Assembly: GCA_002245135.1 (NCBI GenBank)
Contig: NGBS01001218.1
Coordinates: 1-37,816, forward strand
Length of the DNA stretch: 37,816 nt
Direction of reading: 5' to 3'
DNA from: Proteromonas lacertae
Lineage: Eukaryota
This document shows, in pieces, positions 4,042 to 28,201 of the stretch. Within the stretch, counting starts at the first letter, position 1, and every line of letters starts with the position of its first letter. The notes below the pieces were generated by a model, which saw only the letters and a list, made by a program, of their open reading frames with translations, was not told the DNA's origin and did no database searches. Both the position numbers and the translations under genes were made by a program.

Positions 4042-6293
4042 CAGTGATGTATAAAATGGTTAATGACCAGTTGGTTGAATTGCTGGTCTATTGGTCATTG
4101 ACCGTTCAGTGACCTTTAGGTGCTATTACTTGACCTTCTACATACAGGGTGATTTCTTTCTTAAAATCTATCATATAAACTATTTTTTAACCAATATATA
4201 TATTTTTTAAAAAAACCATTTTGACCATTGGTCAATTTATCTTTTTTTTGTAGAAAATATGTTTTAGTTATTTATTGCTAAATAAATTATTACAATAGTA
4301 TATTTGAATATATTAAATATGTAACAATGAATTTAAGCTTTTAAAAAATCATTTTGGCTTGTCAAACCATTTACATTTTCTTTGAAAACAATAAGAATGT
4401 ATAATATAAATCTATTATGTATAGGGAATCTCCAAAATTTCCAGCAGGAACTTGTAATGAAGTGCTCAATATGAAAGATAGCCTATGTTGTCTCGATTTC
4501 AAGTATACCAAGAGCTATTGGTCTTATTTTTTAAAAATTAGGGGCACAGATCAGTGTGTATGCTGTCTGTGCTCCAAACGTTACAAGTGCTTGTCGTCAA
4601 ATGGAAAAGCTATTAAAGGACATGTAATCAGTTGTCATAACTTCAGCGAAACAGTAATTGGGAGAATAAACAATCCAGAAATATCAAGAAATTTATTTAA
4701 TACGATAACAAATGATGGAGTATCAAGCACAATTTTAGACTCAATTAATTTTCGCAATTTCTGCAAGTCACTTAAATATGACTGCCCTAGAAGATTCAAC
4801 TACATCACGTACTTAGAAAACAACTACGAAGAAATCCTTAACAAGTTGAAACGAGAATTAAATAGAAGAAGAGTAGCGTTAGAAATAGATGGATGGAAAA
4901 GCGAAAAAGGAGATCAATACTTTGGAGTGTCATGTAGCTATATTGATAATTATTTTAATGTTATTAAAAGACTATTAGCTGTTAGAAAAGTTGATAATGA
5001 AACAGCATTAACTTTATCAGGTGAACTAAAGGAAATTATTGAACAATTCAATGTAGAGGTAATTAGTGTTACATGTGATAATGCCAAAAATGTATTGAAA
5101 ACAATAAGAATATTAGAAATACCTATAATTAGGTGTTTCGAACACTCCCTTCAGCTTTCTCTTAACAACTCGATAAATGAACAAATCCAAGCAGTGGTAA
5201 ATTATTTTGAAAATTTAGGAAAAGAATTACGAAAACCATCAAATAAGTCCAAATTTAATATAAATATTCCTACTTTGACGGTTACAAGATGGAATTCTAT
5301 GTTTATTATGTTACAAGCTGTAGATAATCATAAGAAAATTTTATTTGAATACTACGATAATGAAATGAAAAAGAAGAAACTTGGATTTGAATGTGATGAC
5401 AGTTTGTTGGAATATTGTAATAAAAATGCAGTAGAATATAAAGTGTTACAAAACCTCATAGATATTCTAAATCCTTTTTATCAGTTGACATTATTTTTGG
5501 AGAGCAGAACTGTTACATGTGGAATGGCGATGTTGAAATGTAAACAAGTAATTCATGAAATGAAGTTTAATTATCCCGAAAAGATAAAAAAATATTGCGA
5601 AGATATTAAAAGCGATATTCTTTCTAGAATTGAAACTATAAATGATGATAGTAACAACATTATATTGCTCTGCTGCTTGTTGGATTTAAGGGTGAAACCC
5701 TTTCTTACTAGAAGAATAATGTTTAATGATAGTGAATATAATAAAGCTGTCAGTATGTTATATGACGTAGTAAATTCTTTAAATGAAAAAGAAGAAGAAG
5801 AATTATTAGAAGAAACTACAACAAATGAACTTGATAAATACTTATTAAATGAAAATCCAACAAAAAAAAGAAAGACTATAAAAAGCGAAGTGGACAACTA
5901 CATTATGTATCAAGAAAGATTTAGTACCACAGATAATATAGGAGAGATTTGGTTAAGACTTAAACCGTCTTTTCCAACAATATTCACAGTTGCACAGATG
6001 TTTCTATCATCACAATGTAGTTCTAGTGAGGTAGAACGTGTATTTAGTAACGCTGGTTTTCTGAGTTCCATACACAGATCAAGTATTTCTCCAAAACATT
6101 TAGAAATGAAGTTAATTATAAGCATGAACAAATAAACTATTAATTACTTTGAAAGCATTATTGATTGATTATATTTGTTTGTTTAAATATAGTATTAAAA
6201 TTAGAAAAGTTTGAAGCTTGACCGACCGATGGTCAAAAAAAAATCGATGGTTTTTGACCATTGACCATTGGTCTACCATTCTATACAGCACTG
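4042..6293 (+). mobile_element. Complete hAT DNA transposon
   Basis: 19-bp TIRs CAGTGATGTATAAAATGGT (4042-4060) and reverse complement CAGTGCTGTATAGAATGGT (6275-6293), 17/19 identical; perfect 8-bp TSD TTAAAAAG at 4034-4041 and 6294-6301; many subterminal TGACC/GGTCA motifs. Confidence 0.97.
4417..6135 (+). CDS. hAT transposase, apparently intact (572 aa)
   Basis: BED-like Zn finger (W..F..CCLC..H...H), IDGW, TCDNAKN, RCFEHSLQL (CxxH), TRWNS, SSEVERVFS catalytic Glu, C-terminal dimerisation region. Confidence 0.96.
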   Translation: MYRESPKFPAGTCNEVLNMKDSLCCLDFKYTKSYWSYFLKIRGTDQCVCCLCSKRYKCLSSNGKAIKGHVISCHNFSETVIGRINNPEISRNLFNTITNDGVSSTILDSINFRNFCKSLKYDCPRRFNYITYLENNYEEILNKLKRELNRRRVALEIDGWKSEKGDQYFGVSCSYIDNYFNVIKRLLAVRKVDNETALTLSGELKEIIEQFNVEVISVTCDNAKNVLKTIRILEIPIIRCFEHSLQLSLNNSINEQIQAVVNYFENLGKELRKPSNKSKFNINIPTLTVTRWNSMFIMLQAVDNHKKILFEYYDNEMKKKKLGFECDDSLLEYCNKNAVEYKVLQNLIDILNPFYQLTLFLESRTVTCGMAMLKCKQVIHEMKFNYPEKIKKYCEDIKSDILSRIETINDDSNNIILLCCLLDLRVKPFLTRRIMFNDSEYNKAVSMLYDVVNSLNEKEEEELLEETTTNELDKYLLNENPTKKRKTIKSEVDNYIMYQERFSTTDNIGEIWLRLKPSFPTIFTVAQMFLSSQCSSSEVERVFSNAGFLSSIHRSSISPKHLEMKLIISMNK

Positions 6294-6301
6294 TTAAAAA
6301 G

Positions 6302-6421
6302 ATGTACTGCAGAGGTAGGTCATATAATAAAGTAAGTATAAAAGTAACAATTTTCCATCAAGACAAGTAAGAATATTCATTTAGTTTGTTTTAAAAGTGT
6401 CTAGTAAACAAATTGCCAACA
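6302..6421 (+). repeat. Fragment of the foldback/MITE family, interrupted by the hAT insertion
   Basis: CTGCAGAGGTAGGTCATATAATAAAGTAAGTATAAAAGTAACAATTTTCCATCAAGACAAGTAAGAATA.. closely matches 17069-17180. Confidence 0.85.
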
Positions 6422-6499
6422 GAAGATGTCATGCAGAAGATTTTACTCTCTTCTGTTAGTTACCAACAATGATATCAGGGATAAATCTTCCTTTGAAGA

Positions 6500-6720
6500 C
6501 TAGAGTGTCCTATTTCTTTTAGTAGGAATTAACAGAGTTGACTTTTGCGAGACTTTCATCGATTGCATCGATGAAGGCCCCGTAAAGTCAACTCTGAATC
6601 TAGAAAGGGATAGACTCCTAGAAAACTCGTTAAAACTCGTTAAGCTGCCTACGGGATTCCTCCTACGGGATCTTCTTCCCTATGAGATGATGAATCCCGT
6701 TTCAAACTAAAGGTGTGGAC
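6500..6720. repeat. Imperfect palindrome plus adjacent sequence; diverged inverted copy of the 21.9-22.2 kb terminus
   Basis: CAGAGTTGACTTT..CATCGATTGCATCGATG..AAAGTCAACTCTG (6533-6596), followed by AATCTAGAAAGGGATAGACTCCTAGAAAACTCGTTA and CCTACGGGATTCCTCC, all matching the reverse complement of ~21965-22123. Confidence 0.9.
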
Positions 6721-6821
6721 CACGCCATAAGTATAATTTCATATAGAAAACATATAGAAAACAACTATAATTTTAATCACGCTGTTTTAAATATTTATTT
6801 TGTATAGATATATTACATATT

Positions 6822-7637
6822 CTAATATAAGTAAGCTGTGCAGTATGGTTTCCATTTATAACAATTTACATTTTTAATGAGATTATTTTTACTAGCATTT
6901 ACTATAGCTTCACTATTTATATATACATCATCCAATAATAAAAGAGAATTTGGATGTGATATTAACTTTATATTAACAATATCATTATATATTACACTTT
7001 GTATGTGACATCCATCAATATGTATCACATTGCATTTACTAAAATTGCTATTAAGTTTGTTAAAATGAAATACTGTATATTCACTTTTACCCCATATCAT
7101 ATTCATTTTAAAAACTTGACTTATAGCATCATATGAATCTTTAGAATACTGATTTCCAATATCAAATCCATAATAATTAATTTCGTGATTAATAGAAGTG
7201 ATTAAAGTAATAGCTCCAACACCTAATTGAAAGCCAATTTCACAGATATTTTTTATTTTATTTTTTTTGTCAAATTCTTTGATTAAATAATTATACTTTT
7301 TCATTTGATAATAGTACATTCCAATATCTCCATCAGCATTACTTAATGCAGATGTAATATTTGTCATTCTTATAGATTTTGCATAGATCCTTATACTGTC
7401 AAGCAAAATAAACAATGGTAATTTATTGAGCTTGTGAATATATACTATACACTCCAATATTTTTTTAATGTTTGGAGATTTACTATATCCTTCTTGTATT
7501 ATGTTTAAATATTGATTTGAATAAAATAAATTATCATCATCATCTTTATCATATTTATAACTACATTTCTGATAGAAATATTCTTTAATAATGAAATTTA
7601 AAAAGATTATAATAAAGAGAATTGTTGTTATATTCAT
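6822..7637 (-). CDS. Membrane-anchored class I SAM-dependent methyltransferase (Methyltransf_24-like)
   Basis: N-terminal hydrophobic anchor; ICEIGFQLGVG motif I, YYGFD, IHIDGCH, LLLDD. Confidence 0.8.
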   Translation of the reverse strand: MNITTILFIIIFLNFIIKEYFYQKCSYKYDKDDDDNLFYSNQYLNIIQEGYSKSPNIKKILECIVYIHKLNKLPLFILLDSIRIYAKSIRMTNITSALSNADGDIGMYYYQMKKYNYLIKEFDKKNKIKNICEIGFQLGVGAITLITSINHEINYYGFDIGNQYSKDSYDAISQVFKMNMIWGKSEYTVFHFNKLNSNFSKCNVIHIDGCHIQSVIYNDIVNIKLISHPNSLLLLDDVYINSEAIVNASKNNLIKNVNCYKWKPYCTAYLY

Positions 7638-8147
7638 TGGTGATATATACTTAAAGTATGTTTTCCATGGGAAAGATTACAAAAATTTAATAATTTTTTC
7701 CACAAAGTCAATCAAGTTTTTAATGAATTGATCTACATATGTAGAAAAAATTATCAAAGTATAAATGCAACTTCTCTTTTTTGAAAATGAAGATGGTTTT
7801 AAAGTAGAAGTTATTGATTATGTAATTCAAGAAAATAGTAAAGAAGATTCAAATAATTCAAAAAGTAAGATTAACAACATCTTCGAATAATCTTTAAAAT
7901 ACTTATAAAATCTTTTTGTATCTCAATTATTTTTAGTGTATTTAGTATATTTATTCAAATATATAAAACAGTAAATTATTATCATTTTATTTCACCATTT
8001 TAATTGATTATAATTCATTTTTCTTGGAATGAAGGGTTTTGAGTTATACTGGTTTGACTGTAATGATAATAATTATAATTATATTCCAGAAAAAGGTATT
8101 ATTATTACAAGTTAATACAATTTGTAAATGCTCAATTGAAATATATA

Positions 8148-9185
8148 TTATTTGAAAATTAATTTACTCTGATTTTTCTTAATAATATATATTTCAATCG
8201 GATAAAATCCATGAATTAACATATACTTATTTAAACTATGAATAGTACTACATATATTGTATGGAAGATCTCTAATTATATATTCAGAAATATCTATCAG
8301 TGATATATTATTGTATTTGAACATATATCCCATAAAAACATCTTCAATCCAAATTTTTGGATTGACATATTTCATCGATATATTCAATAATACAACAGTA
8401 CTGTAAGGAATTATATATCCAACGCCTTGCAAATAAGGAGGATATATATTATCTTTAATAATATTTTTAGGAACATAGTGACTGTATTTTTTATTTCTAA
8501 GTATGAATGTTCTTTTAGATAATTTACCAATAGCATAATTCAAATAATTGCTTTGATAGTATTTTAGCCAGTTATAAATTAAAGGAACATTAACATATAC
8601 ATCAATATCAGATTTTAACAAATACTTAAATCGTATATTAATTGACCATGATATCATATGAGCTGTCTGTATACTTAAATTAAAATATGATGATATTTCA
8701 TTAAACTGAACAATATCATTATATAAACTAGCTTCATATTCTAATTTTCTGTTAATTTTATAATTATTGCTTTTTAAAGTGATATATATTATTATTGCTA
8801 ATTTTGTTTTATATAAAATTTTTCTTGAAATTAATCTTTCATAAAATTCTTCTGGTCTGCAATGTATAAATATAAGAAGATATACATAATTGCGCATAAG
8901 CTTTGGAGATAATAATATTTTTCTATCTAATGGGAAAGAAATAATATATTTTTCAGGATGTCCACCATATCCTATTTTTCTATATTTTGACCTTTTTCTC
9001 ATATCAAACAAATGTTTAGATAGACATAATGATGTAAAATTAGAATTAATTAATAAATCATGAAAGAATAATTGGTGTTCATTACGAAATGTATTATAAA
9101 ATAATAATTTAAAGATGTAATTACATATATAATTAAATAGATATACAGAAAATAGTATATATATAATAAAGAGGTAAAATATCAT
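8148..9185 (-). CDS. GT31 beta-1,3-galactosyltransferase-like glycosyltransferase
   Basis: Type II anchor; YNDIV..SYFNLS, YLLKSDIDVYVN (DxD), YPPYLQGVGYII, IEDVFMG. Confidence 0.9.
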   Translation of the reverse strand: MIFYLFIIYILFSVYLFNYICNYIFKLLFYNTFRNEHQLFFHDLLINSNFTSLCLSKHLFDMRKRSKYRKIGYGGHPEKYIISFPLDRKILLSPKLMRNYVYLLIFIHCRPEEFYERLISRKILYKTKLAIIIYITLKSNNYKINRKLEYEASLYNDIVQFNEISSYFNLSIQTAHMISWSINIRFKYLLKSDIDVYVNVPLIYNWLKYYQSNYLNYAIGKLSKRTFILRNKKYSHYVPKNIIKDNIYPPYLQGVGYIIPYSTVVLLNISMKYVNPKIWIEDVFMGYMFKYNNISLIDISEYIIRDLPYNICSTIHSLNKYMLIHGFYPIEIYIIKKNQSKLIFK

Positions 9186-9228
9186 ATTATAGAGATTTGA
9201 TTTATTTGGTTAATTGCTATAAAAAGAT

Positions 9229-10215
9229 ATAAATAAACTTTCTGAAATAGTTCTAATATTTAATGTTCTTTTAATTCTTTTAATAATAATTACAGTATGG
9301 AGAAAAAAATATTATACTAAATTGGATATGTGGTATGATTTTCTAGTAGTAAATAAGAAAAACAATAATTCTAAAATACTGTTTTATCCTTATATAGGAT
9401 GTGGATTTGCCAATAAAATACCCACATTAGCAAGTACGATTCTATTATCCATACTGTCTTATCATCCAATGTTTATAATAAATTGGGACGAAATTTTGTT
9501 CTATTTTCAAATTCCAAAAAATATATTTCTTAAATTTTACAATATCAGCTTTATAAAAACTTTTAACAAAAATAGTATAAATGTATTAAAAGAATTAAGA
9601 AATGGAATTCCTATAAGAATTTATACATATCATAGTTATGTATCATATATTTTATTATTCTATAATTTAACAAATAAAATAAAGCAAATTATGAAACAAA
9701 ATGAAGAAAAATATAGAAATATAGAAATGTTTGTTTATCAAACATTATTGATACTAACCTCAGTAATAAACAATCATATTTTACAGTTCAATAGATTCAA
9801 GAAAATATCCCACATAATAGTAGTACATATAAGAACAGGTTATTTATCAGACTTCGGAGAAAGCAATAATAGGTTCTATAACAATGGTAGTATTGATTTA
9901 TATATTAAAAATATTAACGCTGTTTTAAAGAATGATAATAAATCAAAAATTTATATAGTGTCTGATTCTACTACAACTAAAAAATATATAGAATCAGTTT
10001 ATAGGAATAATATTATAAAATTTACTATAAAAGGAAAAATATGTCATGCAAGATTTGCAATGCATAATAGTAATAAAATAAATAAATGCGTAGTTAAACT
10101 AATTGCAGAAAATTATATCCTTTCTGAATGTAATAATGTAATAGGAAGTTGTAGAAGTTCATATTTTAATTTAGCTTGCAAAAGGAAAAATGTTAAATAT
10201 TTATCAATTTATTAA
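9229..10215 (+). CDS. Alpha-1,2/1,6/O-fucosyltransferase superfamily protein; anchor is in frame upstream of the listed ORF, start codon reads ATA
   Basis: GFANKI, VVHIRTG (motif I), IYIVSDS (motif II), LSECNNVIGSCRSSY (motif III); frame open from 9223 with hydrophobic segment IVLIFNVLLILLIIITVW. Confidence 0.75.
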   Translation: MNKLSEIVLIFNVLLILLIIITVWRKKYYTKLDMWYDFLVVNKKNNNSKILFYPYIGCGFANKIPTLASTILLSILSYHPMFIINWDEILFYFQIPKNIFLKFYNISFIKTFNKNSINVLKELRNGIPIRIYTYHSYVSYILLFYNLTNKIKQIMKQNEEKYRNIEMFVYQTLLILTSVINNHILQFNRFKKISHIIVVHIRTGYLSDFGESNNRFYNNGSIDLYIKNINAVLKNDNKSKIYIVSDSTTTKKYIESVYRNNIIKFTIKGKICHARFAMHNSNKINKCVVKLIAENYILSECNNVIGSCRSSYFNLACKRKNVKYLSIY

Positions 10216-10238
10216 GAAATATTTTTACATTTTTTAAT

Positions 10239-11071
10239 TTATTTTATGTATAAATTAAAATCACTATTATTATATTTTGAATAGTGCCTATCAAAATGAG
10301 TTGAAAAGTTAAAAGATTTTGTATTATAACAGCTAAAATTAGAATTTTGTTGATAAAGCAGTATATAAAACACACTTTGATCTTGTCTGTGATTAGATCT
10401 ATTAGAGAATTTAGGAGCAATGCAATCTATATTTAAAGAACATTTGAAGAAGGATATTTTAATCCAACAACTCCTCCCGCACACATTGTTTTACTTCTAA
10501 TAATTGAATTTACATTTAAATATAATAATGTCTTTATATATGTAAATCCTTTTATAGTTGATCCTGCTCCAATTGTATAAAATGTATTTTTTTCAATTTC
10601 TTTATAAATTCTTAATAACGATCCTCGTATCAAACATCCTGCATCAAGCCATAATAATGGTTTTTTATATTTTTCATATGATAAAGAAATTATAATTGAT
10701 TTCCATGCATAAACACCTACATTTTTATTAATATTAACATGAGGAGGATAGTCAGTGTAGTTAAATTTATTATAAATTAAATCAATATTTCTCTGCTTTA
10801 TATGTAATATAGCAAAAAAACAAAGTAATTTGTTTATTTGTAGGGATGATAATCCTAAATTCCAAATAATTAAACACATGTCTTTTTCATATTTAAATAT
10901 ATTGTATATAAACAAAAGAAGTAAATGAAAATGATTTGATGAAGATCCTGTAACTAATATTTTATTTTTACTACAGGTATTTTTTAAATAGAGTTGATAA
11001 TTTACTTCATAATAATATATATATAACATCAATAACAATATCATAAAAAATGTCAAGAATGTAATACGCAT
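10239..11071 (-). pseudogene. DUF1647-like putative GT-A glycosyltransferase, frameshifted near 10440
   Basis: Anchor, VTGSSSNHF, WNLGLS, YAWKSIII, LLWLDAG in ORF 10433..11071; CIAP..NHRQDQSV continues in ORF 10239..10484. Confidence 0.7.
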
Positions 11072-11089
11072 AATATAATTATATATAAT

Positions 11090-11925
11090 TATAGATTATT
11101 GTAGGATTGATCGAAAATAATTTCTATATTATATATATAATCAATACCAAATTGTATTTCGTTGAATAATTATTTTTGTAATGAAATTATGTGCTTTTTC
11201 CAGAACCAAATTAATTTTTCTCCATTAAGTGGCAATTTAGGTAAATGAATATCTATTAGACTATTTTTATCTATTTTAGATATATTATTCGGCCATCTGG
11301 ATCTGTCAATTCTAGTGTTAAAATAATTTCTTGGACGATATACAACATTAAAATTAAATTTAGGCCAGTTTCTTATTTTATCTCTTATATATACTTCATC
11401 AAATTTTCAAAATATTTTTTTCCTTTCTTTAATTGAGTTTTAATTATTTTTGAAATAATTAGCTCTAAATTTTTACTTTTTACATCATCTTTTAGAATTT
11501 GTTTCTATATATATTTATTACCCACAATATAACACATTGCCCATCTTCCTGAATTATTTCCATATCCATATCCTTTTACACCAAATGATTTTATTGTTAA
11601 CATGTTATACTCAAAATCATCGAAATATTTCTTTGATACAGGAATCATATCAGCATCAGTTAAATAAAATAGATCATTATCTTTGGCACGTGAGCTAATT
11701 AAATATCCAAGTATCGTTAAATTTTGTCAAATATACAATAGCTCCTAGACTTATCATTATTTTTTTTATGTATAAAATATCACTACTTATATTATGATAT
11801 ACCATAATAACTATGCATTTATAACCATATAATTTCCACGCTTTAATAATAATTGGTAAATATAAAAAATAAGATAAATAACTAACAATGATAAGAAACA
11901 ATATTATGTATAATTTAATATTCAT
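11090..11925 (-). pseudogene. Fragmented putative glycosyltransferase (DxD type)
   Basis: Hydrophobic N-terminus; downstream frames give YLTDADMIPVSKKYF, DEVYIRDKIRNWPKF, RIDRSRWP; several frame breaks; left end approximate. Confidence 0.55.
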
Positions 11926-11932
11926 TATTATT

Positions 11933-12864
11933 TTATAAATACTTCCATTTACTATGATTAACTTTTCTGCTTCTATTTACATAGTAAGTAAAAGATTTAG
12001 GTATATGCAATGGATTTATATACCAATCAGAATGCATAACTGAATAAGGAGGAAGTGATATAAACATACTTCCATTAAATCTTTTAAAAATATTATTGCT
12101 TCTCCTTACTTGGAATATTGTGTCAACTGTAGCTTCTACCAATGAGTAGAATCTATTTTTCCAAAATATTTCGAAATGTGTTTTTGATACTATTTTATTT
12201 TGATCTTTAAAATGGTAATCTACAAGAGGGTAATAATTTGGTAAATTACTAACAACCATTGATGGACCTATTACATCTATCCCTTTACAATTATTAAGAA
12301 TATATATAAAATAATCCAATATATCTAGGGGAGTATATAACAAACACATATCTGGATCAGTAACAATATAGTATTTGCAAGAATGAATTTCAGTAATATT
12401 TTTAATTATATAAGGCAATTCATTATCTGCCATTTTCATCCAATCCAATGTTTTTAATTCTATATACTTTATCTTATTATTCCTAACTAAATTATGTAAA
12501 TATTTTTGAGTAGGAGCATATGTTGTAAAATGATCTAAAACTTACAAATCCAAGTTATATTCCTTTTTGAATAAAAATAGACTTTTCATTAAGACTTTTA
12601 ACGAATATAACCTATCTTTAGTTAAAATAAAAACAGGAATATATGATTTATATCTAAATTGCATATTTATAAAATTACATTTTAGTTTAGTGTATGTATT
12701 TCTATTGTGATTAAATAAATTATATTCCACTTCTTCATTATCTGAATGATCATTATTAATTTTCTTTTTATTATATAAATAATTAAACAAATTAAATAAA
12801 AGGCACATAAACACACAATTATAAAAGTCTTAATAATTAACATGTTTACATTCTTATAAAACAT
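11933..12864 (-). pseudogene. GT2/GT-A-like glycosyltransferase split over three ORFs
   Basis: Anchor (12682..12864), IPVFILTKDRLYSLKVLMKSL first beta-alpha unit (12542..12814), YYIVTDPDM DxD and VDTIF (11933..12448). Confidence 0.7.
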
Positions 12865-12868
12865 TCAA

Positions 12869-13894
12869 TTAATTATGTAAACTACAAGTTGTATTTAACT
12901 TATATGATGTGTTTATATAGTTTCTTTGTTTTATGAAGTGCAAAAAGGCAATTTCAGCTATTCTGAGTGAATGAATCATAAATGTAGTGTTTATATTGTA
13001 ATGGACTTTAGGAATATATTTATATGCTGCATATTTAAAAGATTCAAAACAGTCAAAAAAAGAAAAGTTTGCTTTTCTTGATAAAAGCCCAAATAACATA
13101 TCTTCTTCAAAGCTACATTTTATATTATATAGTTTTTTATCTATGTTACTAAGTAATTGATTTATTGATTTAGCTAAAAATATATATGACATTCCACTGG
13201 GATTTTTTTTTTTGTTATTATTTAAATTCCATATCTTACCAAGTACAAATGATATATTATGCTTCATTATTTTATTTATAGCTTTTTCTACTAACTCAAT
13301 ATTTAAATAAGTGTCAGTATCTTGTTTGATTATTATATCATAAAAATACTGATAATCTTTAACCCACATCAGAAAGTTATATGTTAACATACATAATTTA
13401 AAATAATCACAATAAAAATTAAACAATACAATATCTTTATACTTTTTCATTTCTTTATATAGTTGTTTATTGATGGTATTATTATTATGTAAACCAATAA
13501 AAAATAGTAGCTGTATATTATTATATGAATTGTATATTTTTCTAAATACATATCTGTGATAAAATAAAGATATATGACAATGAAGCGCTATTAGAATTTT
13601 TGACTTTTTTATTTTAAAAGAATGATTGTAAGTTGTTCTATTATGATAATAAATTAACGCACTATCTGTATTAATAATTTTTCTTTTAACATTATTATTA
13701 ATATATGTATATTTTCTACTGCATTTTATTGGAGCATTATCAAAACAACAAGCATTAATTAAAGATATTTCACTCATAAGCTTCATATCATCTGACAAAA
13801 CTAAATTGTTTATGAAGGTAATACATATATTATATGATATTATTATTATCATAATTACTAAATATAATAAGAAGTTTCTTTTTAATAATAACAT
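12869..13894 (-). CDS. GT31-like glycosyltransferase
   Basis: Type II anchor; LLFFIG, EMKKYKDIV..DYFKL, IIKQDTDTYLN, SGMSYIF, EEDMLFG. Confidence 0.85.
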   Translation of the reverse strand: MLLLKRNFLLYLVIMIIIISYNICITFINNLVLSDDMKLMSEISLINACCFDNAPIKCSRKYTYINNNVKRKIINTDSALIYYHNRTTYNHSFKIKKSKILIALHCHISLFYHRYVFRKIYNSYNNIQLLFFIGLHNNNTINKQLYKEMKKYKDIVLFNFYCDYFKLCMLTYNFLMWVKDYQYFYDIIIKQDTDTYLNIELVEKAINKIMKHNISFVLGKIWNLNNNKKKNPSGMSYIFLAKSINQLLSNIDKKLYNIKCSFEEDMLFGLLSRKANFSFFDCFESFKYAAYKYIPKVHYNINTTFMIHSLRIAEIAFLHFIKQRNYINTSYKLNTTCSLHN

Positions 13895-13936
13895 AAATTA
13901 CACATAAAAATTAGAAAAATTGAGAATGAAATTTAG

Positions 13937-14865
13937 ATGAATATAGTAAATATAATAATTACTCATTTTTTATTTACTATATTTATGGTTTATTTATTTA
14001 CTACAAAAAGCAACAATACCACAATAATTATCTATCTTGTATTTCCTAGTAATGGTAAAGGAGGTCCTAAATCTTTATCAACTTATATTCATAAAGCAGT
14101 AATAAAGTGGAATGAAGATAACAAACTATCAAAAACAACAAAACTATTTTATAAAGAATCAGTTAAAATAGATTTTATAAAAAGAATCACAAATAAGCAA
14201 AACACATTTGTATGGTTACAAACAGCTAGCTTTATTCATTTGTATAATAATCCTTCATATAATGGTATTTTTTCAAGAATAATATATGGTCCAAATGTTA
14301 CTCCATTAAATTGGTATAATTCAATAAATAATACATATGAAAAGTATATTTGGATATGCTTTACATTCTGTTAGAGTGAAAAAGCAAATAATGAAGAACA
14401 ATAAATGTAATTCATTTGATTATAAATACTTATATTTAAATATATGTAAAATATGCTGATAAAAATAAAAGAAATGAAGAAAATAGTTTAATAGAATATT
14501 TGAAACAGAAATATAGAATTGAAATTATTAAGTATGGTAATCATTCAAGAGAATCTATATTATCACTAGCTAATGAATCAAAATTTATTATTTATTTCTC
14601 ATTCTATGATACAGGTACACTTTCATTATTAGAAATGAAATCAATGGGAGCATGGCCGATATCTCATCAAAAAGAATTTATTGAGAAGGGATATGGAAGC
14701 TATGTTAAAGAATTGGATAGCGATATTTATAAATCATTTATAATGTTAGATAATATATATAGAACAATTTTTTCCCCTATATTGCTTGTAAATAATGTTT
14801 ATAATCGTTTAAATTGTTTAAAATTATTACAAAAATCAGTAAAATATATTAGAACTATGATATAG
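13937..14865 (+). pseudogene. GT-B fold (GT4-like) glycosyltransferase, interrupted
   Basis: Anchor, GKGGP, IIYGPN in ORF 13937..14374; FSFYDTGTLSLLEMKSMGAWP resembles the GT4 ExFGxxxxEAxxxGxP motif in ORF 14500..14865. Confidence 0.6.
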
Positions 14866-14872
14866 AAAAATT

Positions 14873-15728
14873 ATGACTTTATAAGAATATAGAAGGTATT
14901 ATTTCTAAATTCTTATTTTTTCTTATTTCTTATTATATATTAAACAGATTTATATACAATAATAAACGAAACAAATGTTCTCATTCAAACAAAGTATCAA
15001 TTAATCTACATGATTTGTTTATTTATAATTATTCAATTACATCCAATTATAATTCGTTTTCTGCAGTTATATTTTTTATAGTATCTTCTTCTCTGCATAT
15101 TAACAAAAGAAATATAATAAAGAAAACATGGGTAAATTCATGCTTACATGTTTCATGCAAATATTATTTTGTTATAGCTACTAAAGGATGTTATGAAAAT
15201 ATTAAAAAAGAAAATAATTATGATATTATTGGTATAGACATTATTGATAGTTATTATAATTTAACTATATTAACTAGTAACATATACAGATACTATATAT
15301 TATTTAACTTAAAATCAGATTTTATAATTAAAATAGATGATGATATATTCCCTAATATTCCTCTCATCTATTTGTACTCTTATTTATATATAAATAAGAA
15401 TATGATTTCCGGATACTATTATCCAAGCATGAAGGTAAATAGAAATATTAATTCTTCAGTATATTTACCTAAATCTTTGTACAAATTTAGTACATTTCCT
15501 AATTTTGTTGCTGGTGGGTTTGTTATTATTAATTCTAATTATATTATTCCCTTGTTTAAAGAATTAATGAAAGAAAGAAGAATATTATATAGAGAAGATA
15601 TGCATATGGCTATAATATATAATAAATTAAATATTAACTTTCAAAAAATTAATAAATATTATCATAGAAAACAGATTAAAATAATGTTAAGCAATAAAGT
15701 AAAAGATATATGTTGGCATGGATTTTAG
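14873..15728 (+). CDS. GT31 glycosyltransferase; start region appears damaged, so 5' coordinate is approximate
   Basis: RNIIKKTW, DII..DSYYNLT, FIIKIDDDIFPN, FPNFVAGGFVII, REDMHM, WHG; hydrophobic coding-like segment upstream of 15015. Confidence 0.85.
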
Positions 15729-15807
15729 TGTTTAAAAATTAATGAATTATCAATATTCATAGACTTAAATTATTATTTAATTTAGTAGTAGATTTAAAAT
15801 CATAGAT

Positions 15808-16145
15808 CTATATTATTAAACATTTTTTAAGATAATCAGTCAAAGTATCAGAAAAAGACAATGTCAAATGATTAGCGTCTTTATAAACAATAATTCCGTT
15901 TATTACAAATTGAATCTTTTTCTTTTTGTAAATATATTTATTCATATTGCAATATTTTACTTTTTGATTATATATAAATGGTATTAAAGTAATAGATGAA
16001 TTAATTCCATCTATTGCAAAACATTCTCTTTTTTCTGTAACAGAGTAAATACAATTTAAAGGATTGATATGTAATAAAGGAATATCATTTATTATAAATA
16101 TATGAGATGTATAATTAGATAATATATATAATAATAGTAAATAAA
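15808..16145 (-). pseudogene. C-terminal SGNH-domain fragment of an O-acyltransferase/esterase, 5'-truncated
   Basis: IVYKDANHLT (DxxH) near the C-terminus with preceding Cys residues; N-terminus replaced by unrelated GC-richer sequence at ~16146. Confidence 0.6.
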
Positions 16146-16240
16146 GGTTCTGGCACACCGAGCCGTATGACTCGGGCTCCTGGCACACCAAACCAAACTT
16201 TTTAAAAATACGTGACCTATGTCATATTAGGTCATATTTT
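16146..16240. mobile_element. Putative orphan transposon end
   Basis: CTGGCACACC twice, flanking a CCGAG..CTCGG inverted repeat; TGACCTA..TAGGTCA inverted repeat; abuts the truncated SGNH gene; no partner end seen. Confidence 0.4.
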
Positions 16241-16565
16241 ATTTTTGCATTTTCTAGAATATTCTAATATAATTTTATAGAATTTTCTTTCTATTTTTTT
16301 AAATCTAATTTACATATATTAATAAACAAACACCATTTCAATTAATGATATTAATTTAATTAATTATTTATTATATTTTAATTTTAATTATCAATCTTCT
16401 TCATCCACATCTACTACGTCAAGTTTGTTTTGTTTTAAAAGCATAATTAGCTGCTTTTTTTCATATTCTTCTTTTTCTCTTTCTTCTTTTCTTCTTTTAA
16501 CTTCTTCTTCATTATTTACTTTAGTAAAGAATCTGATTTTTTTGTTTTATTCTCTTCTTCACTTT

Positions 16566-17203
16566 TGTTGTGCGCCGTTTGTCATAGTTGGCCATTTGTC
16601 TATCAGACACTTTTAAAACTAATTAAATGTATATTCTTACTTGTCTTGATGAAAAATTGTTACTTTTATACTTACTTTGTTATATAACCTACCTCTGCAG
16701 AATACTTTTTTGTTAATATAAATAGTTTTAATATTTGCGCCGTTTGTTTTCTAGAAATTTTTAAAGCAAACTAAATGTATATTTAGTTAATATAGACTAA
16801 AATATATTAGATGAAATGATTAGAATATAATAATTATTAAATCTTTCTATATAAAAAAAGAAATGTAAAAAATAGGCTTGAGTGAGGCTTGATTCTATAT
16901 TTTCTTTTATTATTTTAAATGCTTTATGATCAACATTAAGTTGTTCTAAACATTTCAGCTAATATATTTTAGTCTATATTAACTAAATATGTATTTAGTT
17001 TGATTCATAAATTTCTAGAAAACAAACGGCGCAAATATTAAAACTATTTATATTAACAAAAAAGTATTCTGCAGAGGTAGGTCATATAACAAAGTAAGTA
17101 TAAAAGTAACAATTTTTCATCAAGACAAGTAAGAATATACATTTAGTTAGTTTTAAAAGTGTCTGATAGACAAATGGCCAACTATGACAAACGGCGCACA
17201 ACA
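16566..17203. mobile_element. Foldback/MITE element with ~250-bp TIRs and TGT..ACA termini
   Basis: TGTTGTGCGCCGTTTGTCATAGTTGGCC.. (16566 to ~16820) is the near-perfect reverse complement of ~16950-17203; spacer of ~130 bp; no TSD evident. Confidence 0.88.
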
Positions 17204-17649
17204 CATATGATATATTTCCTATTGAATAAAAAACATAGTTGTTTAAAACAAAGTATTTGTTAAGTTGATTGAAATGAATCATTCTTAATGTATACCATGT
17301 AGTTATATTAATTATTATAAATTTATATAGTATATGAATTTAGATTATTAAAATATACACTAATACCCTGAATTATATTAAAATATTTATGTAATATAAG
17401 ATTTGAATTCGATAACATTCCAAGAATATATTCATAAATCCTGCAAAAAATAATATAATAAGAAAATGAAACGTTATTTGATAAGTTAGCTGAAAATATA
17501 ACTATACTCGCTATGCAAGTAATATATAGTATATTCCTGTAATATAAAAAACAAGATAGGAGAATTGGATATATTACATATATTTGCTGCTGAAGAAATA
17601 TATACCAAAAATGTAAAACATACGATGGATTAAATTTTATAACTTTGCT

Positions 17650-17889
17650 AATATAGACTAAAATACATTAGCTGAAATGATTAGAATATAATAATGTTGA
17701 TCATAAGACATTTAAAATGAAAAAAGAAAATATAGAATCAAGCCTCACTCAAGCCTATTTTTTACATATCTTTTTTTATATAGAAAGATTTAATAATTCT
17801 TACATTCTAATCATTTCAGCTAATGTATTTATATTAACAAAAAAGTGTCTGGTAGACAAATGGCCAACTATGACAAACGACGCACTACA
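17650..17889. repeat. Internally deleted copy of the same MITE family
   Basis: Contains the inverted spacer (TAGAATCAAGCCTCACTCAAGCCTA) and the right end GACAAATGGCCAACTATGACAAACGACGCACTACA. Confidence 0.85.
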
Positions 17890-17899
17890 AGCTGGAAGC

Positions 17900-19600
17900 T
17901 TTTAAGGAATGTCATCAGTTCTCTTTTCGTTGCGTTGGTTATTCTAATCCAGTAGGTTTATCCTGATATGTAGTTCCACATTGTTAATAAGGTCTCATTC
18001 ATCGTTTATACTACATCCTTAATAGTCAACAACCTCACTGATAAAGCTGTTTACTTGATTCACAACCAGGTTGTTGAGGTTGTTGACTTTGCCTTGGACG
18101 TCTATCACTCTTGTCTGGCAGTCTCCTATCTTTCAATGTACTTCATTGACCTTGGTTAATTGAGCTGGTGAATAGAAGCTATTGACATTCCCGGTATTGA
18201 ATCCATCGATCTTGGTTCTGATAGCAGCTGCATTGTTGATAGCTGTATCGATCAGTCCTTTACGGGTATTGTTAAAGAAGCCATCCAAGTTCCTTCGGAG
18301 GTTGTCTTCTTCAGTCCTTCTAGCCACGCCGCAGGTTGCATTCACATCATTGATACTTAGAGAATGCACCTTGATCTTGATTGCATCGGTGTTGGCTAAG
18401 TCAGTGAGCTTCGTAAGGCTCTTATCATCCACCGTAGTGATGTACTTGATCATATCGTAGACGTTAACATCCCCGATGTTGAGACTCTCGCATAATGAAT
18501 TCAACAAGGTATTTAGACTATCCAATTTCTCATCCTCTGATCCCTTCAATTGATCGATTGAAGTGTTAGTGGATTCAAGGATATTGCTAACATCCTCCAT
18601 GCTCTTATACAACTCTGGTAATTGCTTCTCCGTGTACTGCTTAAGTTCATTGCTGCAAGTAGCGATATTGCTCAAGGATGTGATAGTCGTATCTCCGAAG
18701 TCTTCAGGGATCTTGTTGTTAAGCAAAGTATATAGATACATCTCTTATATCATAACCTGCCCTGGCCTTCAACAACTTTACCTACCTCCCGAGAAGTACC
18801 TTGCTTACTCTATCCACACGATGAACTTCAACTCCTTACGATTGCTAGCTGATGGATGTAGATGACTTTATCGGCGTTATGATGATTCTATTCCGATAAG
18901 ACTTATACGATGGTCAGAAGCCTCCTTTGAAGTTCACCTACTCTCCTTAGACTTCCAAGGATCTACTAATCGTCTCTCTATTCCAGATGCTCCTTTACCT
19001 TCATGGACTTCTCGGACGTGACAGACATTACCTATGATATGCTTCGTCTTCACTCTCGGTTCTAGCAGTCTACGATCACTGCTCTGGTAAGTACCTTAAT
19101 CATCTCTTGGCATCTCTTGAAGAGCTACTTGTGATCCTTACCGATACCTATCTCTTGAGCTGATGGTAACCCTTTCAAGTGACAACTCCTTCTAGTTCTT
19201 GTTCATCGTAGTTGTTGATCCTCGGTAATGTCCTAGCCTTCAATCAGATCACTACTAGTCTCAGTAATGTTGTTGTTGAAGTCAGTGGCTTTATCTATCT
19301 ATTGAGAAGCACCTTACGATCGATAGCTAATAGACTCTTGGACATCTATGCCGGTGTTGTTACTTGAGGAGTATACGATATCTCGGGTCTACTGACTTAC
19401 TTACTTACTTACTTGTGATGATTCCTAGCATCACAAGTAAGGACTACTCAGGTAAAGGATTATCGATCACACTTCCTATAGTCTGTATTGCAACTCTTTA
19501 TGTACCTACAACTACTTCACGATCTTCAGAGTCATTGATCCAAGGTTGCTATCTCGGGGTTGTTGATGTCCTTGCTATTATTGTCATCTCCGAGACTCCT
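17900..19600 (-). pseudogene. Heavily decayed large virus-like gene(s), possibly fibre/coiled-coil; longest open piece is 18133..18741
   Basis: GC-richer composition like polB; 202-aa helical heptad-like fragment; many stops, frameshifts and an (ACTT)n expansion. Confidence 0.45.
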
Positions 19601-19708
19601 TTAGTTTATTGAATTGATTACTTACCATGTCCTTGGGTTGATCATCTCCGTAAGGCTCCTTGAATTGATTATTTCTATTGTCCTCGACTATCCCAAGGTA
19701 ACATTTTG

Positions 19709-20171
19709 CTAAGTACCGACAGAGTTGTTAGAGTTGAAGATGCGTCTATTGCTGAGGTTATTGATGATTACTTTGCTGAGCGAGGAGTAGTAGTAAGTTC
19801 TATCTCTCGGGAGTTCATTGAGTTGTACTATCTGAAGCGTCTTGAGGGTACGTCTTCTCCTTGATAATAACCTATTCTGTTCTCGGCAGTCCCGACATGA
19901 CGATGAGTAATAACCTTCCTTAGGCATTTGAAATTCCTCCAAGGGCTTATCATGCTTACAAGTACGGCATACTACTTCCTTTTACTGTAGCTTCTCCATT
20001 CACTTTAAGTTGTTTCCATTGAACGGACTGCTTCCTATAATATCGCTCCATTGCCTGGTTGTTCTTGGCCCGGCATGATGGACATTGCTTATAACATCCT
20101 TTACCTCTATCCTTTGGGGTTGGGATCATAGGCTTCTTATACTTACTACAAATGGCTTCGGTATCATCCAT
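19709..20171 (-). pseudogene. Tandem zinc-ribbon protein with one frameshift
   Basis: Joining the frames at ~19980 gives CSKY..CPSCR then CRTCKHDKPLEEF..SSSCRDCR (CxxC..K...F..CxxC), a type common in DNA-virus proteins. Confidence 0.65.
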
Positions 20172-20229
20172 TGAATAACTACTTCCTTGTCGGCGTTGAA
20201 GCTTATCCAACTTCCCTGTGTTAGTCGAT

Positions 20230-21680
20230 CAGAGCTATCTTGGTTGCTCCCGTCCTTGTCATCATGGTGATCTCCTCGGTGAGCTCCTGGACAATGTAAT
20301 TAAACTTTACCTAGATGAGTTATAAAGACAATGAAGCATACCTAAGCAATGATCCCGTGGATGTTCCTTGGCTTTGTAATGAAGTCTCTTGATAGAAGTT
20401 CCATGGGAGGTTCCTTCTTGAGTTACAACTCAAGGAGGAACATCCCTTCCTTGCTAGGATAGATGATAGTTGAATGTTACCTAGTTGATTAACAAGGACG
20501 ATAAGACTTACCTTTATAAGGCTTCCGAGATTGATAACAATGATCTTCAAGGACCCTTGAGAAATTGAAGCCTACTGAAGTGATAACTAAGTTGTTGATT
20601 GTTTAAAGAGGTTCTGATAATGGTCCTTTAACTGAATGAAGATCTCCTGGTCTTGTTGTTGATCAAAGTGTAGTACCTCCCCTGATACAATCACCATTCA
20701 TGACTACGTCCGAGAGAACTCCTCCTTACGGCTATGCCTTCAGGAGGACTTCTCCCGTCCTTGTCATCATGGTGATCTCCTCGGTGAGCTCCTGGACAAT
20801 GTAATTAAACTTTACCTAGATGAGTTATAAAGACAATGAAGCATACCTTCAGAAGCATCCTGAGATTGCTCTTATCTATTCTCAAGTATCCTTGTAAGTA
20901 TTAATGATAAACTGCTAAGCTTAAATCATTTTCATTAGTTTACCTAGTTGAATTATAAAGCCATTGTAACTTACCTCTAGGAAGCTCCCGAGAATGCTTA
21001 CGATGATCTTCAAGGCCTTGAGAAAATCCAGTACTAACCAGAACTTCCAGTTGTAAAGTCACTGATTAATAGAAGTACCATTAAGGCACCTTCCCAGATA
21101 CGTCCAGCCGTGCATGACTACGTCAGGAATCTCCCATGTTGGGAGATTCCTTCCTTGCCAACACGGCTGTTCTTCTCGGGAAGGTCGTGGATGAACTTAT
21201 CTAGGAGAGTTATAAGGATGATAAACTTACCCTTTAGAAACAAACTGAGATTGCTCTTATTGATTCTCAAGTATCCTTGTAAGTATTAATGATAAACTGC
21301 TAAGCTTAAATCATTTTCATTAGTTTACCTAGTTGAATTATAAAGCCATTGTAACTTACCTCTAGGAAGCTCCCGAGAATGCTTACGATGATCTTCAAGG
21401 CCTTGAGAAAATCCAGTACTAACCAGAACCTCCAGTTGTAAAGTCACTGATTAATAGAAGTACCATTAAGGCACCTTCCCAGATGCGTCCAGCCGTGCAT
21501 GACTACGTCAGGAATCTCCCATGTTGGGAGATTCCTTCCTTGCCAACACGGCTGTTCTTCTCGGGAAGGTCTTGGATGAACTTACCTAGGAGAGTTATAA
21601 GGATGATAAAACATACCTTCAGAAGCCTTCCGAGATTGCTAATCATTATCTTCAAGGGCCTTGAGAAATCCACAACTAGC
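20230..21680. repeat. Modular subterminal repeat array: 7 copies of a TTA(C/T)CTAG-initiated unit, plus a 385-bp tandem duplication
   Basis: Unit starts at 20307, 20477, 20812, 20940, 21197, 21325, 21582; ~20860-21244 is repeated at ~21245-21629; a ~95-bp near-exact repeat at ~20248 and ~20753. Confidence 0.9.
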
Positions 21681-21990
21681 TAGAACCTCCCGTAGTTACC
21701 ATTTGGTAACTTGTTACCAATTGTAAACTCCCGGTTCCACGATTGGTTTCCACGGTTCAATTAAAAGCCCTTACAAGATCACCAGCGTAGCAAGGAGAGT
21801 CAAGAGCGTGATTAGATTCATCACCTCGAGGTAACCAACACTTCTAGATAGCTTCCAGGAGTACCCGTAGGAGATCGTCTCATAGATATGTATAGGTAGG
21901 TATAGAAATAGCTTAGAGGAGTTCCCGTAGGGAAATAGACCCCGTTGAGAAGTAGACCCTGTTGGGAGGAATCCCGTAGGAACCTTACGT

Positions 21991-22190
21991 AAACGGGACT
22001 ATGGTACAATGTGCCAGAGTTCTAACGAGTGTTCTAGGAGTCCGTCCCCTTCTAGATTCAGAGTTGACCTTTACGGGAGCTTCATCGATGCAATCGATGC
22101 AGCTCCCTTAAAAGTCAACTCTGAATCTAGAAGGGGACGGACCCCTAGAACACTCGTTAGAACTCTGTGAAAGTGTCCCAGGGTCCCATT
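21991..22190. repeat. ~200-bp imperfect palindrome (hairpin-terminus-like) at the boundary of GC-richer and AT-rich DNA
   Basis: Core 22015-22167: CAGAGTTCTAACGAGTGTTCTAGGAGTCCGTCCCCTTCTAGATTCAGAGTTGAC pairs with GTCAACTCTGAATCTAGAAGGGGACGGACCCCTAGAACACTCGTTAGAACTCTG; centre CATCGATGCAATCGATG. Confidence 0.95.
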
Positions 22191-22387
22191 TATATACTAT
22201 ATAATAATATAATATAATATATATATATATAGAATTTACATTTTAGAAATTAGAATAATAATTATAATACTAATTGAATATACATTTTTTTTTGAGTTTT
22301 TCTTGAAGATCAGTTGATATAGGAATGACTTCCACTGCCGATGAATTAGTCAATCTTATTTCGTTATCTTTATTACTATGTTAAATA

Positions 22388-22759
22388 TTAATATACAAAT
22401 ATATACACTGCATATAATGAATCATTATTTTTGTTCTTTTTGATTATTCTGAGCTCATTTTTATCTTTTTGATTTTTTATTTTCTTAGTAAAAACAATTG
22501 CATTGCCATGCTGGGGGTTTGATACTTTTTCACTCAATTTTTTAATCGAATTCATTACCATCTTACTCTTTTTTTTCTCTATTCTAATATTAACAGATTG
22601 TTTGATATTATCTATTACTGACTTATTCCTATTAATATCTTTATTTATTTTTTCATCATTTATTTCTTCATTGTCAATGTTATAACCATAATCTACAATA
22701 TTATTACTTATATTGTAAAATAATTTTGGCTTTTCTTTTTGTAGTTCTTTTACATCCAT
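22388..22759 (-). CDS. Hypothetical K/N-rich host gene fragment
   Basis: 123-aa ORF, low complexity, no motif. Confidence 0.3.
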   Translation of the reverse strand: MDVKELQKEKPKLFYNISNNIVDYGYNIDNEEINDEKINKDINRNKSVIDNIKQSVNIRIEKKKSKMVMNSIKKLSEKVSNPQHGNAIVFTKKIKNQKDKNELRIIKKNKNNDSLYAVYIFVY

Positions 22760-23033
22760 AAAAGAAAGACTTCTTGGCTTGCAATGTGTTGTTGTAGAAA
22801 TCGAAGTATTTATATCTTCAATTATATTTTCTATAAATTCTGTCCATTCATGACTTGATTATAACGTTCAGCCTTACCATTTGTTTGAGAATGGTAAGGC
22901 GAGCTTGTAACTATGTTTGAGATTATATATTGACAAACTCATGTCCGTTATCAGATTGAATAATTGATGGGGCACTGAAAATTCATATATAACTTTTAAT
23001 ATTTTCTGCTGTTTCTTTAGCACATTTTGTCTT

Positions 23034-23687
23034 TTGACAATAAATCATAATAAAACTACTATAATGATCAAATGTGCTAAACCATCTGAAGGAGAAGAAG
23101 GAGAAGAAGATAGAGTAAAAGAAGAAGGAAGTGTTGAACTATTAGAAAGCAAAGCAACTGAAGGATTTGAAGATGAAAATGATAATGAATTTGAATCAGA
23201 AAAACCATCTGAAGAATTACCTGAAATTAAGAATGAAAATAAAAATGTAGATGAATCAGTAAGAAGAAAATCTTCCCAAGAGAGTGCTAGATTAAGATCA
23301 TTTGTCAATCATTATGTTGATAATACAATAAGAGATATTGTTCAAGATGAAGAACAAAGTACAACAAAACAACAACAACCATATGATGGCAATGATGGTA
23401 ATTCTGTAAATGCACAAGAATCCAAATTCACTGAAGATGGATTTGAGAATGAATCATTTGATACAACTACAAAAACAAATGCAGAAAATAATGAAGGAGA
23501 TTAAGTAAAACCTGAAGAGTCAAAACTAACTGAAAATTTTGAAGGAAATGATGAATTTGCCTCTGAAAAACCATCAGAAGAAATACCAAATAAAGAAACA
23601 GAAGAAGAAGGTAATGTAAAGGCAACTGAAAGTAAAGCAACTGAAGGTTTTGATGATGGAGATGATTTTGATAATTCACTTGAATAG
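23034..23687 (+). pseudogene. Acidic repetitive protein fragment with an in-frame TAA at 23502-23504
   Basis: Peptide repeats ESKATEGF and SEKPSEE occur on both sides of the stop in the same frame, through TAG at 23685-23687. Confidence 0.6.
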
Positions 23688-23842: not shown

Positions 23843-24680
23843 TTATTTTTTCCAAATACTTTTTAATTTATCAGCAGCACGACCTAGAAATCCAAATGGA
23901 TTATGTCTCGATTCATAACACTCATTTTCACTTTTCGCAAATTCTTTCAACTATTCTCTTTGTTTATCACTTATCTTACTATATCAATATAATGATAATA
24001 ATAATAATATATACGTTGGTATTCTTACAGTATAATGCAATATTTGATAGCCTTTACTAAATCCATTTGATTTTACAACAGCTTTATTTCTTAATATCAA
24101 TCTATCACCATTATCTATACCAGGTGGGATTTTAACTTCTACTACTTTTGTTTTTCTTTCCTATATATAAATGATAATAATAATTATATATATATATATA
24201 CTATTCCATTACCATGACAATGACTACATTTCTCTTGTTTTGTACCTGGTGCTTATTATAATAAATATAATAAATATATTATATCCACTACCACTGCATT
24301 TACTACATTGAACCATTCTTGACAATTTTACATCTTTATTACATCCTTTTATTGATTCTAAAAGTGTTAAATTTAAATTATAATGTAAATCATTTCCTCT
24401 TTCAGGAATATCTGTATTTTGATCCATTTCGAATATGTCTTCAAAATTAATACTACCTCCTCCATTGCTAGAATAACTGGCAAATTCACGGAATATATCT
24501 TCAGCAGACATTCCTCCATTGAAACCACCAAAACCACCTTATCCTCCCATCATGTTGGGATCTACACCTGCAAAACCGAATTGATCGTATTTCTTATGTT
24601 TTGCATCTGTTACTTCTACAAATTTCTTCTGTGCTTCTTTATCGCCTTTATTTCTATCTGGGTGATATTTTTTGTTTTTA
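23843..24680 (-). pseudogene. dnaJ: Type I DnaJ/Hsp40 pseudogene with short spliceosomal introns
   Basis: [17 protein letters not shown] region, EDIF, CSKCSGSG, CSHCHGNG, VKIPPGIDNG; GT-AG introns 23979-24014 (36 nt) and 24161-24201 (41 nt); stops at 24539-24541 and 23951-23953; internal deletions. Confidence 0.9.
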
Positions 24681-24937
24681 CATAATTCATTTTCCATAGA
24701 CACAATATAAAATACAAAACATAATAATAATTATAACATGTCATTAACTATTTAAATACTAGTAAAGTATGAATTATCCCATCTTGTTGAATCAATAGCT
24801 AATGATTTTGTTCTTTCCTATCTATTTCATTATTACAAAAACTAATTATCTTCATTAATTAAAGAAGAGGTAGATCTAGCTCTCTTTCTAAACATTCCTG
24901 ATTTTAATAAGTTGAATATCAACATCAATATTACTAT

Positions 24938-28173: not shown

Positions 28174-28201
28174 ATTATGAGTATATAATGTTAGAGGAAA
28201 T

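Follow-up and report, generated by a model that had tools for sequence, protein, structure and literature searches.

Polinton/Maverick and MELD viruses integrate into eukaryotic genomes, and some are reported from Blastocystis datasets (PMC8502044). The endogenous virophages, as well as the Polinton-like viruses (PLVs), of the protist Halocafeteria seosinensis end in palindromes that have been proposed to prime replication by folding back; the same survey also describes fragments nested with transposons in hotspots, elements whose GC content stands out from that of the host, palindromes (52 nt in virophage subtype 5) that adjoin target-site duplications (TSDs), and an association of such palindromes mainly with replication polymerases other than pPolB (10.64898/2026.07.28.741278). 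Nematode Mavericks carry cargo (wasp and krma genes) that is host-like, of different GC content and placed directly inside the left terminus, in blocks of 2-5 kb that lie beside retained core genes and recur in many elements (10.1101/2022.07.12.499685). Blastocystis, a gut protist with a carbohydrate coat, is described as having surface-coat glycosylation genes of the Beta-1,3-galactosyltransferase type (PMC6115916, citing Eme et al. 2017), and AT-rich Blastocystis genomes of 21-23% GC exist (PMC12129017). Our subject is a locus on contig NGBS01001218.1 (assembly GCA_002245135.1) of Proteromonas lacertae, where two hairpin-forming palindromes 15.7 kb apart bracket a block of predicted glycan genes; the window, the whole stretch of 37,816 nucleotides analysed, is eukaryotic DNA rich in AT. 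The original prediction had taken this bracket for a single mobilised element carrying glycan cargo. We instead give somewhat better than an even chance to separate remnants of a hairpin-ended, Polinton-like family lying around a resident glycan cluster, later trimmed by deletion in a transposon hotspot.

The locus resembles each of these systems in part. It has the end palindromes, the fragments nested with transposons and the GC contrast with the host that mark the Halocafeteria PLVs, but its right palindrome measures 203 nt, a TSD was not found, and its likely polymerase is pPolB. As in Polinton and MELD viruses, it is integrated in a eukaryotic genome, and the nearest of 18 longer relatives of its pPolB bears an endonuclease VII-like domain, which scores below the Pfam cut-off; that relative is only 51% identical, however, and integrase, ATPase and capsid genes were not found in the GC-rich segments of the window. 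Host-like genes of different GC stand directly inside the left terminus, as in Maverick cargo, but the block is 11 kb long, has no core genes between the ends, is seen at one locus and gives no sign of movement. Galactosyltransferase-type genes in AT-rich DNA recall Blastocystis. Palindromes at termini, hotspots of nested elements and cargo in Mavericks are already on record; the new points are a family that is missing from the collections searched, a 100-bp terminal stem that probably goes with pPolB, and an uncommon tendency to avoid homopolymers. In our literature search, no title or opening of an abstract dealt with a Polinton-like element that contains a glycan cassette, most of the papers having been judged by those parts.

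A palindrome stands at the element end, as in Halocafeteria: a GC-rich segment of 4.3 kb closes at 22192 with a 203-nt palindrome (21990-22192), beyond which a TA-rich run begins. Its 100-nt arms agree at 88% (69 of the inner 73 positions and 19 of the outer 27), and its fold has a z of -19. The left terminal stub (6533-6740, + strand) contains an imperfect 64-nt palindrome at 6533-6596 (65 columns at 80% in self-BLAST; fold z -4.8 for region 6490-6750), with a 72-nt inner arm, a 31-nt outer arm and two subterminal motifs. As the original prediction held, this palindrome and its right flank form a diverged reverse complement of the palindrome at 22 kb: 6533-6638 aligns inverted with 22017-22123 at 86.9% over 107 nt (E 6e-30). 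Since the right target is itself a palindrome, the same stretch can be aligned directly as well (82%, E 7e-23). Three observations make the termini inverted and inward-facing, again in line with the earlier claim: both share the palindrome apex, which reads in the same direction; past the arm, another 39-nt block aligns in the inverted sense only, scoring 41 where the null reached at most 27; and the CCTACGGGA motif, present five times where 0.49 is expected, occurs twice on the + strand at the left and three times on the - strand at the right. A direct-repeat arrangement was rejected on the same apex, block and motif strands. The right-hand motifs and a subterminal repeat array occupy 20241-21989; in the array, a 385-nt unit with 79-nt sub-units is repeated 2.2 times between 20250 and 21700. 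Sequence comparison supports the view that both palindromes are the ends of elements from a single virus-like family with hairpin termini, and that they face inward around predicted glycan genes. The hairpin patterns found no match among the viral contigs searched. Two pPolB-bearing viral contigs, L015 (11572-11751) and L016 (5705-5884), have imperfect internal palindromes of about 105 nt in common, with no BLAST match to the hairpin of the window.

The original prediction had missed both the incompleteness of the left terminus and the presence, outside the bracket at 1-3650, of sequence with the same fingerprint as the right-hand element. This GC-rich, virus-like segment (1-3660, + strand) is cut by the window edge and comprises a broken pPolB at about 5-2877 and a following ORF (open reading frame). 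Over 1-2877, Pfam DNA_pol_B_2 matches in three pieces and tblastn aligns P0024 in seven blocks (E 1e-154); the damage amounts to six frame breaks and one in-frame stop over about 940 codons, in an indel-rich pattern. Its right-hand counterpart, the element body at 17891-20240 (- strand), holds a 202-aa ORF, two small Cys-rich ORFs and fragments. Decayed virus-like genes had been claimed within the bracket, and in part this holds: there is one Zn-ribbon ORF (PHROG HNH/endonuclease VII, E 4e-6), and the composition agrees; the 202-aa ORF, on the other hand, had no relative among the sequences searched, nor any likeness to a 501-aa ORF of the second element described below.

The two GC-rich segments are alike in composition. 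GC is 0.42 in both 1-3650 and 17891-22190, and the observed/expected ratio for AAAA plus TTTT is 0.19 and 0.17 respectively, where every other segment of the window lies near 1 and 122 pPolB-bearing viral and metagenome loci have a minimum of 0.42 and a median of 1.3. Trinucleotide profiles of 1-3650 and 17891-20240 correlate at r 0.92, and a model that had learned to tell 1-3500 from host flank called 38 of 42 right-segment windows element-like and none of 96 glycan windows. Compared with synonymous shuffles, the left segment has 22 AAA and 21 TTT (41 expected for each) and the right segment 11 AAA and 4 TTT (27 and 10 expected), so that the depletion of A and T runs, unmatched in the 122 related loci, exceeds what codon usage explains; together with AT skew, the AAA/TTT depletion is mirror-imaged between the left (+) and right (-) coding strands. 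Runs of all four bases are depleted in 1-3650 and 17891-22192, to 0.09-0.26 of expectation for AAAA, 0.13-0.34 for TTTT, 0.12-0.46 for GGGG and 0.32-0.49 for CCCC. A sequencing artefact was considered and rejected: 1-3650 lacks about 43 runs, yet pPolB has only six frame breaks, and AAG stands to AAA as 62:8. It may be conjectured that homopolymer avoidance reflects a slippage-prone polymerase. Composition strongly suggests that 1-3650 and 17891-22192 belong to a common family, and since the fingerprint recurs outside the bracket, the locus has at least two pieces of the hairpin family under any model. The 15.7-kb bracketed unit itself consists of 4.5 kb of element and 11.2 kb of AT-rich DNA, and no polymerase, integrase, ATPase or capsid was found among the ORFs scanned in 6533-22192; nor was a packaging ATPase or double-jelly-roll capsid found in the GC-rich segments. 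In its working the hairpin element resembles a PLV, yet it cannot be filed as one, because integrase, morphogenesis genes and a TSD were not found in the pieces present.

The two ends are unequal. The left terminus is a 210-bp stub whose outer arm measures 31 nt against 100 nt at the right, and so falls 69 nt short; a longer left outer arm was tested for and was not significant (p about 0.09). Alignable likeness between left and right ends near 6680, about 40 nt past the arm, and element-like composition continues only to about 6740. Checked as a near-identical terminal inverted repeat (TIR) pair, the ends give 87% over 107 nt plus the 39-nt block, with the left end truncated and a 27-nt gap, the spacing from arm to motif being shorter by about that length in the left copy. 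Private changes number 10 in 104 nt in the left arms and 4 in 146 in the right arms (Fisher p 0.025); over arm positions 32-73, where the right arms agree, the left arm accounts for five of six changes (p 0.018), each of them towards A/T; and arm position 11 is G in both left arms and C in both right arms, a paired change. The left end is thus further from the right end than the two right arms are from one another. This pattern appears unlike that predicted for one shared insertion with equal decay, on a test that is modest. No TSD of at least 5 nt was found at the scanned boundaries (6525-6536 or 6415-6425 on the left, 22185-22200 on the right), although one could be hidden, because the true left end may be lost. 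The caveats attached to the original prediction (no TSD, diverged ends, and cargo much more AT-rich than the termini) hold, the cargo having a GC of 0.21 against 0.40-0.42 in the GC-rich segments.

On its sequence, the right junction between the glycan block and the GC-rich DNA is secondary, because it is made of a broken miniature inverted-repeat transposable element (MITE). The MITEs and the repeat array reported inside the bracket are real: a foldback MITE with 276-nt arms at 94% (16566-17203) lies within an insert at about 16148-17210 that splits an O-acetylase gene, and a half-deleted MITE (17644-17890) occupies the junction with its intact end abutting the GC-rich DNA. The 5' part of the O-acetylase is absent from 17644, the start of this half-deleted copy. 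In the simplest history, a MITE would have inserted into the element first, and a later deletion would have run through the left half of the MITE, the remaining element and the start of the O-acetylase. The right copy would once have reached further left, and its own left end was possibly lost in the deletion at the MITE; in that event no partner at 6533 is needed. Within the O-acetylase, 16148-16560 is a transposon-like piece whose left edge bears a doubled GGCACACC motif and for which the window offers no partner end, and a further faint copy of the MITE centre occurs at 25037-25167 (71-75%). To the left of the bracket, a partial foldback MITE arm (6296-6420, + strand; about 90% to 17058-17182) has been interrupted by a hAT transposon (4041-6294, + strand; Pfam Dimer_Tnp_hAT, E 1e-8) with an intact 572-aa ORF and an 8-bp TSD, TTAAAAAG, on both flanks; read by eye, the first bases of the arm sit left of the hAT, near 4030. 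By our own segment list, about 65% of the window is mobile DNA.

Between the termini, ten gene units lie within 6822-17667, seven of them with a family match (three Galactosyl_T, Methyltransf_24, DUF1647, acyltransferase-3/SGNH and a NodZ/FUT8-like fucosyltransferase look-alike) and three without. The original prediction of about ten intronless glycan genes is qualified to that extent, and the intronless state is shown for the unbroken genes only, GT-AG candidates spanning four of the five gene breaks examined. A hydrophobic N-terminal anchor, a feature typical of Golgi enzymes, starts most of the ten; an unbroken course from ATG through the anchor to the stop is found in only three, five are interrupted, and two have no in-frame ATG before the anchor. 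From left to right, the block begins with an unbroken, anchored S-adenosylmethionine methyltransferase (6822-7637, -; Methyltransf_24, E 2.8e-6) and the first GT31-type galactosyltransferase, also unbroken (8148-9185, -; Galactosyl_T). A predicted NodZ/FUT8-like fucosyltransferase without in-frame ATG before the anchor follows (9223-10215, +; Atlas feature score 0.96, no Pfam match), then an anchored DUF1647 protein with a likely frame break near 10433 (10244-11071, -; Pfam E 6e-7) and a three-piece anchored protein that has a DxD-like motif but no family match (11170-11930, -). The next gene (11933-12808, -) has an in-frame stop at 12542-12544 and looks GT-A-like by eye only; it gave no Pfam match even when read through with X, no phage or plasmid match, and a predicted fold too poor to use (pLDDT 33). 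Beyond it are the second GT31-type galactosyltransferase, unbroken (12869-13894, -; E 9e-11), an anchored protein in at least two pieces without family match (13937-14865, +), the third GT31-type gene, with no in-frame ATG before its hydrophobic segment (14877-15728, +; E 9e-20), and the split acyltransferase-3/SGNH O-acetylase (15808-17667, -), whose 5' end is cut by the MITE remnant. The three putative galactosyltransferases score 76.1, 42.4 and 71.7 bits for Galactosyl_T against a cut-off of 23; the O-acetylase matches PHROG O-antigen acetylase at E 5.8e-7 and 5.8e-4, with Pfam Acyl_transf_3 and SGNH below cut-off.

In codon usage the glycan genes correlate with the flanking AT-rich ORFs at r 0.96, against r 0.11 for the pPolB segment. 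For the first GT31 there are 11 relatives of full length, each from a Logan assembly and 55-65% identical to it; these are 51-70% identical to one another, have an AT-type residue bias in common with it and form an unresolved star. Scored for degeneracy, it shows four singleton departures where its relatives show 0-7, and so is no worse decayed than they are. These comparisons suggest that the family has long been present in AT-rich genomes. With the GT31 alignment, no locus was found among the metagenome, viral or prokaryote contigs searched, and the fucosyltransferase, queried as a single sequence, found no relative in viral contigs; its look-alikes include giant-virus clusters, whose taxa give no sign of transfer. 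Seventeen window ORFs, 13 of them glycan pieces, had no match in the 122 distant pPolB loci (879 kb), and NCBIfam, PDB sequence and Rfam searches added no further identification. The TGTTTGTT motif (core TGTTGTT) occurs 8 times against 3.1 expected, a weak excess given a maximum of 9 in 100 shuffles.

On the reading that we favour, a Polinton-like element would have inserted separately to the left and to the right of a cluster, itself likely resident, of predicted Golgi-type glycan enzymes. The family would be an integrating linear double-stranded DNA element, each end of which folds back to form a stem of about 70-100 bp, and pPolB would belong to it. The stem could prime replication, or extrude as a cruciform for resolution, conceivably by the endonuclease VII-like domain. 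The left stub would be all that is left, namely the end, of another or earlier copy. The glycan genes would serve to build or alter the surface coat of the host itself, several copies here looking damaged. Several points weigh against this account. Inward orientation at 15.7 kb would be seen in only one of four random pairings, neither terminus has another partner in the window, and the distance falls within the range of 14-40 kb given for PLVs. The arm age test presupposes that the right arms have not undergone gene conversion with each other; over the initial 31 nt, a stretch that all four arms possess, private changes do not differ (five left, three right). The segment at 1-3650 and the hairpin-bearing right segment share no overlapping sequence, so that we infer their common family, and with it the tie between pPolB and the hairpin, from composition. 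Captured cargo would also show host-like composition, and the GT31 pattern leaves capture unrefuted for that reason; the position of the glycan block, moreover, is that of the distinct-GC cargo directly inside the left TIR of nematode Mavericks (10.1101/2022.07.12.499685).

A possible but fairly unlikely alternative is that one element was split in place, the host glycan block, MITEs and hAT having entered, or taken the place of, the central part of a resident copy which was never mobile again. This copy might span 6533-22192, or might run from upstream of the window, with pPolB pointing rightward, to 22192, with its genes pointing leftward, the left stub being a further fragment. The convergence of pPolB on the + strand with the right ORFs on the - strand, and the mirror-image AAA/TTT depletion and AT skew, would suit such an element, as would the position of replication genes, often near one end in elements of this kind (10.64898/2026.07.28.741278), and the MITE pieces that bound the AT-rich interval 3660-17890. 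Yet no MITE end occurs at 3660, the left stub still requires a separate origin, and the left-right divergence, with its paired change at arm position 11, has to be set against it.

We regard as improbable the proposal that a non-autonomous, hairpin-ended derivative swapped its core genes for an 11-kb glycan cassette and moved in trans to this site. Homologous inward-facing termini, a PLV-like span, a dense block of unrelated glycan families adjoining the left end, the giant-virus clusters among the fucosyltransferase look-alikes (their taxa notwithstanding) and the nematode Maverick precedent (10.1101/2022.07.12.499685) all speak for it. Against it, the left end is truncated and diverged and has no TSD, the right junction is secondary and the likely replication gene lies outside the bracket; GT31 relatives are absent from the viral, metagenome and prokaryote contigs searched, and the single-sequence fucosyltransferase query found none in viral contigs; no second copy was seen and nothing shows movement. 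The original prediction of one mobilised 15.7-kb element is thus not supported, in view of its left end, the placing of the likely replication gene, a right junction made by later deletion at a MITE and the lack of any sign of movement; that a homopolymer-avoiding Polinton-like virus captured the cassette behind its left terminus and carried it within or between protist genomes seems to us quite doubtful. If it were true, the element would be a vehicle for swapping the surface-coat chemistry of protists, a eukaryotic counterpart of phage serotype conversion, and would offer a way to test the origin of glycan gene clusters. If separate remnants surround a resident cluster, less is gained: a 100-bp terminal stem, probably coupled to pPolB, in a virus-like family that did not turn up in the collections searched. 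The protist survey places such palindromes mainly with other polymerases (10.64898/2026.07.28.741278). An assembly join through repeats (MITE arms, palindromes), with some frame breaks as read errors, is very unlikely: junctions do coincide with repeats and pPolB is indel-rich, with six frame breaks and one in-frame stop in some 940 codons, but the hAT keeps an ORF intact over 572 aa and a clean TSD, the O-acetylase halves flank the MITE in correct order and strand, and in-frame stops occur as well. Part of the apparent gene decay may nevertheless be read error.

Outside the bracket, some 200-900 bp beyond the right hairpin, lies a broken, AT-rich rve integrase gene (22388-23110, -; Pfam rve E 1.4e-4, below cut-off), the rve remnant at 22831-23072 being unlike the hairpin family in composition. 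Next comes a DnaJ-like gene (23860-24700, -; Pfam DnaJ_C E 0.09), whose short AT-rich interruptions were read by eye as introns and whose in-frame TAA in the Gly-rich linker marks either a pseudogene or a read error. The TIRs of a second hAT (25768-28176, -) have diverged, its ORF is broken and it lacks a matching TSD; in subterminal sequence it is similar to the hAT at 4041-6294. The right end of the window, 28400-37816, is taken up by a second Polinton-like element, AT-rich (GC 0.29) and separate from the hairpin family. Its capsid gene (33390-34821) has one frame break and 14 relatives, and its predicted fold matches double-jelly-roll capsids; the capsid alignment found no match in viral contigs. 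An ATPase-like gene with a break follows at about 34890-35700, and small palindromes occur at 28589-28646 and 31281-31308. At the other end of the window, between the pPolB segment and the first hAT, an AT-rich gene fragment at 3660-4030 (-) bears an IGIDFG motif, which we take to be Hsp70-like.

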